A stretch of 18,348 bases of DNA from a virus (IMGVR_UViG_3300045988_138873), one strand, 5' to 3'; shown: positions 3,168-17,110, counted from the first letter of the stretch. Notes: generated by a model not told the origin, from the letters alone. Numbers and translations: made by a program.

Positions 3168-3866
3168 ATGGCATTCGAAGATACAATTCGCAATATGAAG
3201 AAACGGCTTCAGGGAAATGTCTGCCCAAATTGCGGCATTCCTTGGAAAAGTGCGCCAAGTTGTCCAAACTGCAAATATTCGCCGAAAATTGTTGCTTGCC
3301 CAAAATGTGCAACAATAAAAGCATGCATTTCAATCTCTGAAAAAAGAAAATTATTGACAAACCCAGAGGCGGTAGATTCGGCAGAAAGCTGTGAATGCAA
3401 CGTCTGTTATGCGGAATTAAATATGACGAACGAAGAATATGACAAAATAAAATGGGATAATCTCAAAGTAGAAACATGGTGGCCAGCGAAATGGAAAGCA
3501 TCTGCCTGTACATTATCAGACTTTGTTGCTGCACGGTATGCTTTTGAAAACTATTTTGACAAGTCGCAATTAGACACCAGCCTATCTAAATACAAGTCCA
3601 ACTACGCCAATATGTTCCCTGAATCGGAAGAAAGTATAGAGTATTTTAGAAGCGTTGGTGGCATTGAAAACTATTACTTTCCTCAGAACACAGATCATAC
3701 TACTTCTCGTCCCAAGCACGTTCCCAAATGCCCCATCTGCGGATCTGAAAATCTCACGCGACTGACCACGATGAAGAAGGCTGCAAAAATAGCGCTGGTT
3801 GGAATTTATGGACTTGGCGATTGTGGGAAGACGTGGAAATGCAATAATTGTGGCAGTAAGTTTTGA
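3168..3866 (+). CDS. Multi-zinc-ribbon protein, unknown function (only convincing plus-strand gene)
   Basis: 232-aa ORF with its own promoter, RBS and terminator. CxxC pairs: CPNCG...CPNCK...CPKC, CECNVC, and a C-terminal CPICGS...KCNNCG flanking the hydrophobic stretch AAKIALVGIYGLG. Confidence 0.7.
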   Translation: MAFEDTIRNMKKRLQGNVCPNCGIPWKSAPSCPNCKYSPKIVACPKCATIKACISISEKRKLLTNPEAVDSAESCECNVCYAELNMTNEEYDKIKWDNLKVETWWPAKWKASACTLSDFVAARYAFENYFDKSQLDTSLSKYKSNYANMFPESEESIEYFRSVGGIENYYFPQNTDHTTSRPKHVPKCPICGSENLTRLTTMKKAAKIALVGIYGLGDCGKTWKCNNCGSKF

Positions 3867-5917: not shown

Positions 5918-6151
5918 TTACCCGAAACAAATTGACGAAATATAATTCGTATATGCCGATTCATCACCGTTACATTTTTGAATAATGAAAGTTCCAATCC
6001 TCTCTTTCTCAGAAGTCTTCCTAACACCTTCAGCATAAGAACGATATGATCCTAGCACTGTCTTCCCTTTTATTGCAAGGAAAGAATCTCCGTACTTTTT
6101 AAATAAGTCGGCATAATTATCCAAGAACCACTTATATTCATCCTTCAACAT
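5918..6151 (-). CDS. Small DUF5678-like protein (77 aa from ATG 6151)
   Basis: The RBS GAGGTG precedes ATG 6151 (the track start at 6217 has no RBS). The pattern YGDSFLAIKGKTVLGSY...IGTFIIQKC resembles the small proteins found beside archaeal and bacterial retropepsin-like proteases (from memory). Confidence 0.5.
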   Translation of the reverse strand: MLKDEYKWFLDNYADLFKKYGDSFLAIKGKTVLGSYRSYAEGVRKTSEKERIGTFIIQKCNGDESAYTNYISSICFG

Positions 6152-6200
6152 ATATGCCACCTCTAGAATAACATTTTGCACTTTCAATATTTTGACACGT

Positions 6201-6395
6201 CTAACGCACAAAGTCAAGACATTTCATATCTGTATTGCTGCGAATCGCGTTCTCTAATATAGATGCTATTTGGCATCCGCGTTTAGATGCACAGCCGATC
6301 TCAACCAACTTCTCAAATTCTGCCCATGCAGATTCATACCCGTCACAAACGCTTTTGTCAAACACGCTTGCATCATACGCATCGTTCAATACCAC
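6201..6395 (-). CDS. 64-codon ORF, either a hypothetical protein or the 3' exon of the tape-measure gene
   Basis: GTG start at 6395 directly after a TGA, with AAGGATAGGTG upstream. No recognisable motif. It is in frame with tape-measure exon 1 if the 3' splice site is G6396. Confidence 0.35.
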   Translation of the reverse strand: MVLNDAYDASVFDKSVCDGYESAWAEFEKLVEIGCASKRGCQIASILENAIRSNTDMKCLDFVR

Positions 6396-6874
6396 CAGTC
6401 ACACCTATCCTTTATTTAGATGAGCCACCTGCGGCAACAGATGGCTCATCAGGCATTCAGAGAAATGTTGTTCCCAGCAACGTCTCTCTGCCAATTTGTG
6501 AGCCGTCTGTTCCAGCAGACGGCTCGTGCGTTTGTGAAGCACTGCTTCAGAGGCTCACTATAGTATGTGTGTCACTATTTTGGTCGGCGGCGTGACCCGC
6601 CTGTAATTTTTGCGCTGTCGCGCTGATTTGGAATACCCCTTCACGACTCATTGAGCCGCGCAGCCATTATACTCTCTGAACGTTCTCATGCGAACATGAG
6701 CTTCGCTGCGGATTCCTTTCGGTTCCCGGAGTGGAATTACAAAACCACCCGCCTTTCGGCCAATTTCGGCTGTTTTGCCAATGCTCCCTCACTTGCAACT
6801 CACGCTGCAAGCTCGTTCCGTGTCACCACCAGAGCATATGTGGGCACATCATGAGAACCCGTCATTTTGGGTCT
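6396..6874 (-). ncRNA. Second, ORF-less group I intron in the 3' end of the tape-measure gene (3' boundary approximate)
   Basis: P1 GTGGGT(6880-6875)/GCCCAC(6845-6840) with a terminal U:G. P2 hairpin 6792-6811. P-like AAATTGGCCGAAAGGCGGG (6766-6748). Q AATCCGCAGC (6714-6705). P6 CTCATG-TTCG-CATGAG (6700-6685). R-like GTTCAGAGAGTATAATGG (6681-6664). S-like CATACTATAGTGAG (6567-6554). Long 3' hairpins at 6500-6525, 6452-6492 and 6421-6448. Confidence 0.6.
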
Positions 6875-9800
6875 ACCCACAGAACGAATAAATTGAACAC
6901 CAAGGACACCGGCAGATACCGTGCCAAGCGTTCCAAGGCTCTTCGTGATTGTCTGGATAACGCCAGACATATCCGTCAAGAGGTCAATTACATTCTTAAT
7001 CGTTCGCGTATCATAAAGATTCTGAGCGACACCAACCCAAGTTTCTTTCAGCGCATTCAACTTGAATACGATGGAGTCTTGGGCACGCTCCAACTCTTTT
7101 GACGCGCTGCCAGCAGAACCGGCCATAGCGTCCATAGCGTTCTCTGCCTGCTTAAAGTTTGAGATAAGTGCCGCACCGACCTGGGCGCGTTGCTTGCCGA
7201 ATAGCTTTTCGAGCAACTGCGCTTGATTTTTATCGCTGATTTCATTCCAGATATCTGCAATATCTTTCAGAATATCATAAGTAGAACGATAAGTGTTTGG
7301 ATCGTCGGCCTCAAACAAGCTGATTCCCTGATTATTATTGCTTGCTACTTTCGTCAAGTTAGCAATATCGCCTGTGATTTCCTTGAGGTCATCAGAATAT
7401 GTTTCAGTTTCCTCGTCGTAACCTCTCAGGCGCATAGAAATCGTCTTCAAGGCATTGCCGACCTGCGAAGAATCTCTCGTAATCTCCGTAGCCGCAGTAG
7501 CCAACGCGACAGTCTGCTCAAACGTGTTATTGGCCGCAGCCATTGCGGATGACGATCTAGTAAGTGAATCAACAATATCAGCATTCGATACAGCAAAATT
7601 GTTGCCGACTTCGTTTATCTTAGAAATAATTCCGTCAAGAGAATCGTTAACGTCCAACTCCTTGAACGCCTTCAGCATACTGACAAGACCATCAGTTGCC
7701 TCGGGCAAATCAAGATCTTCAGACACCGCAGAGAAAATAGCAGAGTTCCGTGACAACGTAGACGCCTCGTCAAGCGAGTACCCCAGACGTGCCCAGTCTG
7801 CTGTCTGCTGAATGATGTCCTTTGTAGACGCACCGAGTTCCTTAGCAGTCTGGTTCGCCGTATAATAGAAACTGCGATACTGCTCTTCCGTCGCATCAGT
7901 CGTTTTCTTCAGGTCAATAAGCGCATTATCGAGGTCTTTAACAACATCGAATCCCTCTCTGAGCGTTTGCCACGTCTTAAAGATAATAGTTGTTGCGCCA
8001 ATCCACTGAGAAACCTTAGCGAGGTTGTTCTTGAAAACATCACCAAGTGATAGTGTATCTTTACCAGCAGCTTTAACCTCAGCGCGGAATGCGCTTAACT
8101 GTGCTTTCCACTTTGAGAAATCGGCTTGGCTGTTTACACGGCCAAGACTGACTTTCAACTGGTTGAGTTGCGCGTTAAGACCGGGGTCGTTTTTAAGCGC
8201 GCTCCACTTTGTTTCAATCGTGATTAGGTCTTGCTTCGCTTTGGCAAGCCCAGACTCAAAACGAGAATCGGCAACATCAAGCCTCGACAATTTTTCGAAA
8301 TGCATTACCTCGGACGTGCAATCCTCTAAAATTTGACGGAGCTTTTCATAAGCGGCTATTTTGCCTTGGTCATCTAGCTTGCCACCGTTAACTGCTTTAA
8401 GTTGCCTGTCCAATTCTGCGATATTTCCAGCGAGTTCTTTTGACGGATTCCCAAGAGCAGAAAACCGTGCCTGAAGTTCCGCAACCTTTTGCGGCATAGA
8501 TGCCATCTCTTTATTGATAGACGCAACAGCATCTTTTACGCGGCCTTCTGCAACAGCAAGCTCATAGTTTTGCTGAATAGCTCTCTCGTCGTGTTGCGAA
8601 CGTGCCTTGGCGGCAGCAACCACTTCAGGCATGAGATGAGATTGGATTCTGATCTCTTGCGTGATTTTCGATTGCTCGGCCTCAACACGAGCCAGCTCAG
8701 CCGCCATGGTCTGATACTCTTCAGTCCCCTGACTCGTGCTGAACATTTTCTTTCTTATTTGTGTGGCTCTGCCACGAGCAGAAAGCAAGGAATTATATTT
8801 CTGAACGACACCTTCAACCTGAGCATCAAAGCTCTTGACCTCAGCACTCAAAGTGCTAAATTGATTAAGATATTTTGTCAGTGCCGCGCCGTCTGAAGCG
8901 CCGCTCAACTCGTTATGAAGTTTATCAATTCGAGCTGCAAAGTCTTGCGTAAGATTTCCTACATTTGAAAGTTTCGTTCTATAGGCATCTAACTTAGACA
9001 ATTCCTCATCACGAATAGTCACGACGTCTTTCGTGCGCAACTTTGTCGGAGCGCGCTCTAGCGTGCGGTATGCCTCACCAAGCGCTTTTGCATTTGCAAT
9101 GAGTTCAACAATCTCTCTTTGCTGATCTCCACTTAGCGCACCATTTTCCGCTTTAAGTGCAGCGATTTTATTGTTGATTTCTGTGACTTTCTCTCCGAAC
9201 GATTCAAGCCTAGACTGGTCAACAATCGGCTTCTGTGAACTCTCTCCGGTATAAGACGCATTGATTTTATTGATTTCGATTTGCTGTTTTGATAGAAAAT
9301 TCAAGCGAGACTGGTTGTCTTTTTCAGTTTGTCGTGCCAACGCAGCCGCAGACTTGCGCTGTCGCTCCAAATCTAGCGTAATATTTGTTGTTGTTGTGCT
9401 AATTTCCTTTGTCTGCTCGTCATATGTCTGAAAATACGAAACTACTTTGCCCGCTTGATCTTTACCTTGGATTGTGAGATTTAATAGATTTCTAGCTCCA
9501 TCTACGGACTTCTCCCATTTGCCACTCACTCTGTCGATACGAATACCCATCTGGTCAATCTGCTCGACCATGCTATTCGTAATAGACGGATCAACATGCA
9601 AATTATTTAGTTCCGCTTGTAATTTAGTGATGGAATTTTGATCTAAACCTAGTTGAACGCCGACTTTATTGGCGGCGACCTTTTGATTGATTTTTTGTAC
9701 AAACGCACCTGCTTGCGCGCTAACTGCGCTATCATCAAGCGCGATTCCGACTTTAATTTTACTCGACTGATTTACCTTGTCGGAGATGCTTGGCAGTTGT

Positions 9801-11250: not shown

Positions 11251-11976
11251 TTAATTCTTGTCGTACATCGCCGCAAAGTCAAAATCATCTGCGTGCTGGC
11301 TGACCCACCCGCGATAATTTTTCGTTAATTTGCAGACCGCAACACGTGAGTCACCATCGAACCAATCCATGTAACCGACAAACCCACTACGCTCAGGATT
11401 CGAGTAGAGGTCTATCTGACCGTCATGCCCAATGACGATAGTCTTGCAGTTGTCGTTAATTCGCGTCAGAACCTTTTTCAATTCGTCATAATAAAAGTTC
11501 TGCGACTCGTCGATGATAACCACCTTGTTTTCAAAGTTCACGCCGCGCAGAAATGTGTGCGTCACACACTCAATGTAAGCCATGCCGCATTTCTCGTTCT
11601 GACCACCATCCATGAATGCTGTATTCAGGTTAACCCCGATTTTATCAAGCGCCTGATAAAAAGGCTCGAAATACGGTTCAGACTTCTCTTCAATAGTACC
11701 TTTAAGATAGCCTTGTTTCTGCTCCTGCGTGGGCGCGGCAACGTACACGATGCCACTATACAAACTGTGCGCACAAAGCAGGTTCGCCGTAGCCGTAGCA
11801 ATCAGCGTCTTACCAGAACCGCTTTTCGCATTGCAAAACACAATACGCTTACTTTCATCCCAGATAGCATCGCGGAACGCTTCCTGATCTTTATCCAGCT
11901 TCAGCCCGTAAAAAGGATGCTCATTAAGCGTAATCGGAGCCTCGCCGATATTCATAGTCGTATTCTTCTTCGCCAT
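11251..11976 (-). CDS. phoH: PhoH-like ATPase
   Basis: Walker A NAKSGSGKT, Walker B VVIIDESQN, and PhoH-like segments EKSEPYFEPFYQAL, HTFLRGVNF and VIGHDGQIDL. The RBS GAGGT precedes ATG 11976. Confidence 0.8.
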   Translation of the reverse strand: MAKKNTTMNIGEAPITLNEHPFYGLKLDKDQEAFRDAIWDESKRIVFCNAKSGSGKTLIATATANLLCAHSLYSGIVYVAAPTQEQKQGYLKGTIEEKSEPYFEPFYQALDKIGVNLNTAFMDGGQNEKCGMAYIECVTHTFLRGVNFENKVVIIDESQNFYYDELKKVLTRINDNCKTIVIGHDGQIDLYSNPERSGFVGYMDWFDGDSRVAVCKLTKNYRGWVSQHADDFDFAAMYDKN

Positions 11977-16941: not shown

Positions 16942-17110
16942 CTAACAGTAACTTACTGCTTCACAGCGTCCCCGTTCGTCGTGACTACTTGGGTTTGTTT
17001 GACGCTCCACAGCTTGAAGGCGCAACGACGCCTTGAGGTTGTAGCCCCTCTGCATTTTAGGCTACATACCTGCTTAGATTGATAGCGGCATTGTAGTCGC
17101 GGTCTATCTC
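16942..17110 (-). ncRNA. Putative TnpB omega RNA (reRNA) scaffold / IS200-IS605-type right end; 5' limit approximate
   Basis: A 115-nt non-coding tail plus the 3' end of tnpB. Hairpins GTAGCC/GGCTAC (17041-17065, spanning the stop codon), AAGGCG/CGCCTT (17017-17034) and AGCGTC/GACGCT (16965-17006), and the palindrome CAGTAAGTTACTG (16946-16958). This is the location where TnpB guide RNAs are known to be encoded. Confidence 0.5.

Follow-up and report, generated by a model that had tools for sequence, protein, structure and literature searches.

A probable group I intron with multi-gene cargo in the tape-measure gene of a gut phage

A tape-measure gene probably divided between two reading frames

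The viral contig IMGVR_UViG_3300045988_138873 (18,348 nt, analysed over its whole length and called the window below) carries on its minus strand two long open reading frames (ORFs) related to phage tape-measure proteins (TMPs), and between them a GC-rich RNA element followed by a set of small genes. The upstream ORF (9877-6800, 1025 codons) belongs to the TP901-type TMP family, with PF10145 present on every C-terminal homologue. The downstream ORF of 885 aa (3097-440) has no ribosome-binding site (RBS), matches the TMP family phrog_4211 and weakly matches the distal part of the TMP of Enterocloster phage PMBT24. We consider it likely that positions 6874-3053 of the minus strand (3,822 nt) are one group I intron inside a single TMP gene. 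The intron is atypical: its catalytic core lies in the first ~300 nt (6874-6571), and the rest is variable multi-gene cargo. Exon 1 (9877-6875, minus strand) would comprise 1001 codons ending in ...GVQFIRSVG, the last codon GGU ending in the splice-site U. Exon 2 (3052-443, minus strand), the TMP-coding part of the 885-aa ORF, would contribute 870 codons, starting with GCAUCGU (Ala-Ser-Phe, protein ASFKVLRQ...) and ending where another intron, recognised by the group I model RF00028, begins (454-21, minus strand, 72 bits). The predicted spliced RNA joins ...UCUGUGGGU to GCAUCGUUCAAAG..., or in a longer form ...AUUCGUUCUGUGGGU to GCAUCGUUCAAAGUU....

The fused protein, in which GVQFIRSVG is followed by ASFKVLRQAKQEIEAL, aligns without a break over residue 1001/1002 with two uninterrupted homologues, P0006 and P0009 (query residues 702-1074 and 708-1087 covered in BLASTP). 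Contiguous TMPs, of 1508 and 2528 aa, are encoded by cultured relatives (Enterocloster phage PMBT24, Brevibacillus phage Sundance) and extend 1000-1450 residues beyond the site. Removal of the predicted intron would restore a continuous, conserved coding sequence. The first-pass annotation of this region placed the element at the 3' end of the TMP gene and proposed an alignment of TMP homologues; past ...GVQFIRSVG, these proteins continue as the 885-aa ORF does, and the gene extends for at least 870 codons beyond its supposed end. Two earlier ideas were discarded. Uninterrupted homologues had seemed to end at the insertion site, with ORF ends such as ...FIKNLD-stop, but several of these ORFs are followed by group-I-like RNAs, and the cultured relatives, P0006 and P0009 all read past the site. 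An exon 2 of only a few codons, suggested by the many homologous ORFs ending at the same residue, was likewise wrong.

Exon 2 of the window is 88% identical to residues 1-862 of the C-terminal TMP part of contig L047 (1669 aa). L047 is without the RF00028 intron 454-21 and passes from ...DDFTSDL directly to QLDISKYQQ... in an ORF of 1,669 codons. Since L047 reads through this site, both introns of the window lie in one TMP gene of roughly 2,700 codons, and not in the two longest tail genes as had been supposed. In other relatives the ORF breaks off elsewhere, at 729-748 and 1262 codons, and more polymorphic introns may be expected there. A second recurrent TMP break, after ...LLEKLAG, occurs in P0068, P0071, P0072, P0084, P0090, P0101, P0103, P0115 and P0120, whose ORFs end in non-TMP tails (for example ...YVQKCA or ...IKNIFNCR before the stop); the window is uninterrupted there, reading ...QLLEKLFG and then KQRAQ.... 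The window is itself a piece of a ~100-kb phage, with sister contigs of up to 101-110 kb, and not an 18-kb replicon.

Distribution and conservation of the element

A BLASTN search with the element returned one phage record, MT837120, in which the copy also follows a TMP ORF. Similarity between the two begins exactly at the proposed 5' splice site: the TMP flanks are 32.5% identical, as against 72% for the first 180 nt of the element, and the ribozyme RNA is better conserved than its host protein. Exact-pattern scans found the element in ~90 contigs, mostly from human-gut samples and most of 75-150 kb, and scans of genomes and metagenomes added a few loci, among them diverged types f and g. The copies form seven sequence types, a to g, the window belonging to type a. 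Over 45 loci the predicted intron is 1,325-5,196 nt long (median 3,030) and both splice sites are in phase 0.

GC content is 0.50-0.53 in the element and 0.35-0.45 in the flanks, and the region 3' of GUGGGU (6880-6875, minus strand) has no long ORF within the GC-rich stretch. Types a and b read from the TMP gene into the element in different frames owing to a 1-nt indel, so that the similarity lies at the RNA level. The last 24 codons of the 1025-codon ORF were assigned to the intron from the outset, and this assignment holds: the tail RPKMTG... is not conserved as protein, and the frame differs in type b.

Structure of the catalytic core

The secondary structure (minus strand throughout this section) was tested on a MAFFT alignment of 35 non-redundant copies, <95% identical to each other. 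Pairing is possible in 98.3% of the cells, compared with 37-48% when the partners are slid, and 29 of 64 pairs show changes on both sides; none of 500 shuffles matches the observed values. RNAalifold, run without input from the model, recovers P1 (7 bp), P1a, P2, P3, the hairpins X and Y, P4b, P5, P6, P6a, P8, P9.1 and a GNRA mini-hairpin, and the single-sequence fold is better than those of shuffled sequences (z = -2.8). The covariation and the RNAalifold result bear out the original proposal of a second group I ribozyme on the minus strand within the TMP ORF, starting between 6875 and 6874. The helices follow in the order P1, P2/P2a/P2.1, P3, J3/4, P4 split by X and Y, P5, P4', P6/P6a, J6/7, P7, P3', P8, J8/7, P7', J7/9, P9 and P9.1, which is the group I topology with its P3/P7 pseudoknot. 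Order and sequences of the core parallel the RF00028 consensus as it appears in intron 454-21: AAUCCGCAG, P6, then UUCAGAGAG.

P1 pairs UGUGGGU (6881-6875) with GCCCACA (6845-6839), the internal guide sequence (IGS), and places the 5' splice site after U6875. The initially annotated P1 (GUGGGU 6880-6875 with GCCCAC 6845-6840, including a U:G pair) was right except in extent, the helix having 7 bp. Three positions show compensatory changes, the U:G pair is invariant in 35/35 and 22/22 sequences, and both strands vary in step between types (GUGGGU/GCCCAC, CUGGGU/GCCCAG, GCGGGU/GCCCGC). Two elements lie in the P1 loop, a small hairpin (6872-6857, ACCC/GGGU) and the strand that takes part in P10 (6852-6846, AUGAUGU). 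P2 (AUGCUCU/GGAGCAU, within 6837-6781), in which four of the seven pairs have changed on both sides, encloses a covarying mini-hairpin GUG-GUGA-CAC (6829-6820) and the P2.1 hairpin CUUGCAGC-GUGA-GUUGCAAG (6811-6792). The loop of P2.1 contains the UGA (6802-6800) that ends the 1025-codon ORF, as the first-pass annotation had noticed, and the hairpin belongs to the P2 region.

P3, P5, P6, P7 and P8 have each changed on both sides, and in P3, P6, P7 and P8 every cell of the alignment is paired. P3 (CAGCC 6772-6768 with GGCUG 6665-6661) is followed by J3/4, GAAA, in the first part of the core (6772-6661). P4 is split: UUG (6763-6761) and CGGG (6728-6725) together face UCCGCAG (6712-6706), and the hairpins X (6760-6751) and Y (6750-6729), both with compensatory changes, stand between the two halves of the 5' strand. 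P4 is here a variant architecture, with a four-way junction predicted inside it. The P-like AAATTGGCCGAAAGGCGGG of the earlier description dissolves into J3/4, the first half of P4 and the inserted hairpin X. P5 is CC-GAAA-GG (6722-6715) with a GNRA loop and, like P6 with P6a (6705-6681), shows compensatory changes; J6/7 is UUCA. Three further elements were described correctly at the outset: Q (AAUCCGCAGC), the R-like GUUCAGAGAGUAUAAUGG and the hairpin CUCAUG-UUCG-CAUGAG (6700-6685).

The 5' strand of P7 is G(A)GAGUAU (6676-6669). Exchanges in the 35 copies (C-G for U-A, G-C for G-U) identify its 3' strand as GUAUUCC (6636-6630), and displace the S-like CATACTATAGTGAG and the P7 that had been built on it. 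G6676-C6630, the bulged A6675, G6674-C6631 and A6673-U6632 are invariant in 35/35 sequences; a bulged A followed by G-C and A-U corresponds to the canonical guanosine-binding site (G-site) of group I introns, and these residues are predicted to act as such. P8 (6660-6642) covaries and is separated from the P7 3' strand by J8/7, AAGGG. J7/9, AAAUC (6629-6625), doubles as the 5' strand of P9.0; P9 (6623-6612) and a covarying P9.1 (6601-6586) follow. The P9.1 loop GUCAC (6596-6592) pairs with GUGAC (6575-6571) in an H-type pseudoknot, the partners of which vary by type yet match each other in seven types.

Two further observations concern the core region. In L079 and L083 (~1450-1800) the same ribozyme carries a large insertion in the P6a loop. 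On the plus strand of the window, the complement of P9.1 and the preceding A-run (6586-6611) resemble an intrinsic terminator (GGCGGCGTGACCCGCC TGTAATTTTT), which could halt antisense or convergent transcription into the ribozyme.

A predicted distal 3' splice site

The 3' terminus of the intron is placed at 3081-3053 (minus strand), with G3053 as the omega-G, 3.8 kb downstream of the 5' splice site. Three predicted pairings connect this segment and exon 2 with the core. In P9.2, GACCAAA (6585-6579) in the linker after P9.1 pairs with UUUGGUC (3081-3075), 22 nt upstream of the 3' end; in P9.0, GAUUU (3058-3054) pairs with AAAUC of J7/9; and in P10 the first nucleotides of exon 2, GCAUCGU (3052-3046), pair with AUGAUGU (6852-6846), directly 5' of the P1 guide strand. 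The arrangement was assessed in every type with enough downstream sequence. Types a to e all have, at the head of an ORF of 600-1800 codons and in frame with it, a G followed by the complement of their own IGS-adjacent sequence: exon 2 GCAUC(G/A)U with AUGAUGU in type a, ACAAUCA with UGAUUGU in type b, AUAUUC with GAAUAU in type c, GCAAUUA with UAAUUGC in type d, and ACA-AUCAA with UUGAU-AA-UGU, which has a 2-nt bulge, in type e.

Among 22 distinct junction constructs, P10 shows double changes in 6 of 7 pairs and 92% paired cells, and none of 500 shuffles reaches its score; the slid comparison (31-44% paired) refers to the whole P1+P10 structure. A G precedes exon 2 in 42/42 sites located without requiring one, three apparent exceptions being false motif matches. 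The two strands of P9.2 vary in concert, both among type a copies and from type to type (a, b, c, d), and this pairing is likely to form.

From established group I chemistry, the splicing pathway would run as follows. Free guanosine would attack after U6875; P9.2 and P9.0 (GAUUU with J7/9 AAAUC) would then return the last nucleotides of the intron to the core, so that G3053 could dock in the G-site of P7, while P10 would align exon 2 (GCAUCGU) on the guide sequence beside P1. Exon ligation would yield ...FIRSVG-ASFKVLRQ..., a TMP of >1,870 residues that is interrupted once more by the RF00028 intron 454-21.

Conservation between types stops directly after the pseudoknot, and in types b to g a promoter-like site, an RBS or a convergent gene lies 10-60 nt past the core. 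A conserved G before the 3' strand of the pseudoknot was considered as omega-G and rejected, its position relative to the pseudoknot differing between types, and proximal P10 matches sought by eye appeared in type d only. In type d (L081, ~11440-11460), a second perfect P10 target, GCAAUUA, directly follows the pseudoknot, and an alternative 3' splice site may lie there, close to the core. At 6555-6578 the window has two copies of the direct repeat AUAGUGA (minus strand), the first overlapping the 3' strand of the pseudoknot. They stand 10 nt apart here and 1 nt apart in L020, the spacer being polymorphic, and type f has a similar duplication of AGACAAA. Two copies are at the level of chance, and no third AUAGUGA was found near exon 2.

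Multi-gene cargo

The cargo (6570-3082) would lie in a loop closed by P9.2 and holds five or six genes on both strands; its length varies from 1 to 4.8 kb between copies. On the minus strand, ORFs encode proteins of 64 aa (6395-6201, with its own AGGUG-N6-GUG start), 99 aa (6217-5918), 171 aa (5867-5352) and 335 aa (5178-4171). The 171-aa product is a retropepsin-like aspartyl protease with PF13975, PF13650 and a DTG motif, and type b cargo also includes ORFs bearing ...LIDTGA. The plus strand encodes a 232-aa multi-CxxC zinc-ribbon protein (3168-3866), adjoining the 3' splice site and equipped with its own RBS and a TTGACA box. Two minus-strand ORFs (3360-3094 and 4174-3920) are probably antisense shadows of this gene. 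The C-terminal motif of the protein, GKTWKCNNCGSKF, is met again, likewise antisense, in type b, d and g cargo, and ORFs with DZR or Zn_ribbon matches occupy the same place in L091, L092 and L096; the antisense zinc-ribbon protein may be a partner protein of the intron. Beyond the aspartyl-protease-like domain, Pfam and PHROGs gave weak zinc-ribbon matches only.

The description of the intron as ORF-less gives way here: up to G3053 it encloses four minus-strand ORFs and the plus-strand zinc-ribbon gene. As for its companion statement, that neither a homing endonuclease nor tnpB is present, neither was recognised among the cargo ORFs scanned. A TnpB-like transposase ORF of 379 aa (18196-17057, minus strand; phrog_506, E=5e-114) is found elsewhere in the window, outside the intron, with a RAGATH-18 RNA (16953-17013, minus strand, 57 bits) directly downstream of it. 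Between the core and the 64-aa ORF, four stable hairpins fill 6550-6420 (minus strand). Three distal hairpins of this stretch had been taken for intron elements, but they occur in type a only and outside the conserved ribozyme. The loop of the last one is inverted between relatives, reading UUGCCG in the window and CGGCAA in L064.

A conserved read-through tail

In unspliced RNA, the frame of exon 1 continues into the intron (6874-6800 in the window) and ends in Ala or Val, then Ala and a stop, in 68 of 73 unique copies. The tails close with ...NELAA, ...NEQAA or ...SERAA, and in type b with ...NMAA or ...NMVA. The stop lies in the P2.1 loop in types a, c, d, e and g and in another hairpin in the frameshifted type b; Ala-Ala-stop is retained in type e despite a different hairpin register, and type f has no early stop in this frame. 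In both Ala codons positions 1-2 stay GC and the wobble position alone varies, and tail lengths differ by multiples of three. It is conceivable, if rather doubtful, that this intron-encoded, ssrA-like C-terminus marks truncated TMP from unspliced RNA for ClpXP-type degradation; it is just as possible that the Ala-Ala tail merely results from GNRA hairpins being GC-rich. Were the former true, the degron would act as quality control, by which truncated N-terminal TMP is removed and does not poison tail-length determination.

Evidence against splicing and alternative readings

Several observations weigh against the proposed intron. P4, uninterrupted in group I introns, is broken by two hairpins, and its pairs are invariant except the first and hence without support from covariation. 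The J8/7-P7 3' sequence, AAGGG-GUAUUCC, is unlike the usual AAGAUAUAGUC. At the distal site, some copies of types b and e have a weak or bulged P9.2, the automatic search being noisy for type b, and P9.0, complementary in most copies, has an invariant strand in J7/9 and hence cannot covary. Pfam and PHROGs revealed no recognisable homing endonuclease in the cargo, and a PDB sequence search with the zinc-ribbon ORF had no match. IMG/VR scans for exon 1 ends returned unrelated chance matches, and no intron-less allele with identical exon ends was found. Promoter-like sites (judged by eye, in type b) and an antisense gene lie inside the cargo, so that the full-length 3.8-kb precursor may be rare. 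Finally, the sequences show the secondary structure, the pairings at both splice sites, an unbroken frame and homology over the junction; we infer catalysis, and splicing in cis over 3.8 kb.

The covariance model is a further point on this side. RF00028, run on the window together with all of Rfam at the gathering threshold and at E<=10, has no match to the element (6150-7000) even at the latter setting, and none in MT837120; the search proposed with the first-pass annotation was thus negative. The diverged copy L100 gives a local match on the correct strand (model positions 60-145, 16.6 bits, E=0.068; threshold 50). L094 has a canonical-looking intron at the same TMP site that reaches only 15.6 bits, and because this intron scores so poorly as well, the negative result is weak evidence here. 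The split P4 and the J8/7-P7' sequence unlike the consensus are probably what makes the model fail.

A different 3' end would change the product. A compact intron with a proximal 3' splice site after the pseudoknot (AUAG followed by UGA, at G6575 or G6558) would end the N-terminal TMP with ...RSVG and a stop and leave the 885-aa ORF a separate gene; in a weaker version, the proximal site would be an alternative to the distal one. A G followed by UGA does stand in or beside the 3' strand of the pseudoknot in types a and e, AUAGUGA is doubled in the window, type d has its perfect 7-nt P10 target right behind the pseudoknot, and in the homologue L093 the equivalent Gly is the last codon before a stop. 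No rule of position or sequence extends over the types, however: b, c, f and g lack the G with a stop, the window has no P10 match there and its two copies of the 7-mer are what chance provides, whereas at the distal site P10 covaries in all types and exon 2 has no RBS. We regard the proximal site as unlikely. Still less credence, indeed hardly any, is due to the ORF-less intron of ~480 nt first annotated (6880-6396, at the TMP end), possibly fusing the 64-codon ORF (6395-6201) at G6396. That G keeps the frame, and hairpins fill 6550-6420, but this hairpin region exists in type a only, and types b-g have a promoter-like site or gene within 10-60 nt. Other types contain no homologue of the 64-aa ORF, which has a start of its own, no P10 or P9.0 can be drawn, and TMP homologues continue like the 885-aa ORF. 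None of the omega-G candidates at 6410-6396 gained support, and neither pairing, homology nor conservation favours the fusion.

The distal site itself might be used in trans, with the core on the exon 1 transcript, and the 3' terminus and exon 2 on a second transcript started in the cargo, the two being joined by P9.2, P9.0 and P10. All contacts of the 3' splice site are pairings of 5-10 bp that could form between molecules, a promoter-like TTGACA-N17-TATAAT directly follows the core in type b (by eye), stable hairpins follow it in type a, and the cargo holds an antisense gene. The two parts nevertheless share a strand and keep their order, for which a read-through precursor is simpler, and on the minus strand the core has no T-rich terminator behind it; trans-splicing seems quite improbable to us. 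We think it very improbable that the element is a decayed or domesticated, non-splicing group I RNA—serving, for instance, in 3' processing or in stabilising the message for the N-terminal TMP part—with the two TMP parts as independent proteins. RF00028 does not recognise the element, P4 is interrupted, close relatives include no intron-less alleles, and the read-through tail shows signs of constraint, all as such a relic might. All catalytic-core features are kept, however, neither the U:G pair nor the G before exon 2 ever varies, phase 0 holds at both sites in 45 loci, and the covariation of P10 with exon 2 over the types would be inexplicable if the 3' splice site were not in use. A single cis-splicing group I intron from 6874 to 3053 is the reading that we favour.

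Significance and comparison with known systems

In a group of abundant human-gut phages (~90 contigs), the TMP is called as two or three unrelated ORFs, one with a junk-codon end and one without a start site. The real product would be a single protein of ~1,900-2,700 residues, which alters predictions of tail length. The family widens the structural range of group I ribozymes by a four-way junction in P4 and a 3' pseudoknot, and since the standard covariance model misses it, RF00028-based surveys undercount phage introns. The variable cassette of 1-4.8 kb in the distal loop, with promoter-like sites of its own and an antisense gene, suggests that a self-splicing intron can offer accessory genes a safe harbour within an essential structural gene. 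The P1, P10 and P9.2 pairings give exact predictions for splicing assays.

The TMP insertion position is an intron hot spot. Different group-I-like RNAs occur at the same TMP codon in L091 (3727-4186), L092 (4464-5060), L094 (2045-2810) and L096 (3773-4262). They have an R-like CAGAGACUA and an S-like AUAGUCC, are missed or barely scored by RF00028, and are followed by small, mostly antisense genes and then by an ORF of 945 to 2516 codons. Within the window, the RF00028 intron 454-21 (72 bits) resembles the intron 6874-3053 in helix order, in AAUCCGCAG-P6-UUCA, in A-rich J4/5 and J5/4, in the G-site motif and in the host gene, whereas the latter intron differs by its P4 5' strand split by X and Y, its J8/7-P7 3' sequence unlike the consensus and its 3' pseudoknot.

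The phage T4 nrdD (sunY) intron also has its ORF downstream of the core, and its distant 3' splice site is chosen by P9.0, P10 and a long-range pairing. An ORF 3' of the core and a far 3' splice site are thus shared with the intron described here. The T4 intron, of ~1 kb, carries a single homing-endonuclease ORF, whereas the present one has promoter-like sites and five or six genes, one of them antisense, and no endonuclease is recognisable in it. IStrons combine a group I intron with an IS200/IS605 element, as in CdISt1 of Clostridioides difficile. They are alike in having a group I ribozyme at the 5' end, followed by kilobases of coding passenger DNA that is removed along with the ribozyme. 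Unlike them, the present intron has neither transposase nor TnpB—no transposase family matched the scanned cargo ORFs—and its passenger genes are variable and include the conserved antisense zinc-ribbon gene. To our knowledge, the multi-gene cargo is larger than any described for bacterial or phage group I introns.

A precedent in the same kind of host gene comes from prophages of the Bacillus cereus group, the TMP genes of which contain group I introns (Tourasse and Kolsto 2008, PMC2504315). These are likewise of the self-splicing group I type, lie in the long conserved TMP gene of Firmicute phages and may number more than one per gene. The intron described here differs from them in residing in ~100-kb gut phages related to Enterocloster phages, in being RF00028-negative with an interrupted P4, and in carrying a multi-gene cargo of 1-4.8 kb. 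Our literature search returned the TMP introns of Bacillus prophages and nothing on intron-encoded degrons, multi-gene cargo or the family described here. A group I intron in a TMP gene has precedents, then, and what is new is the sequence family, its interrupted P4, its 3' pseudoknot, and the size and multi-gene nature of its cargo.

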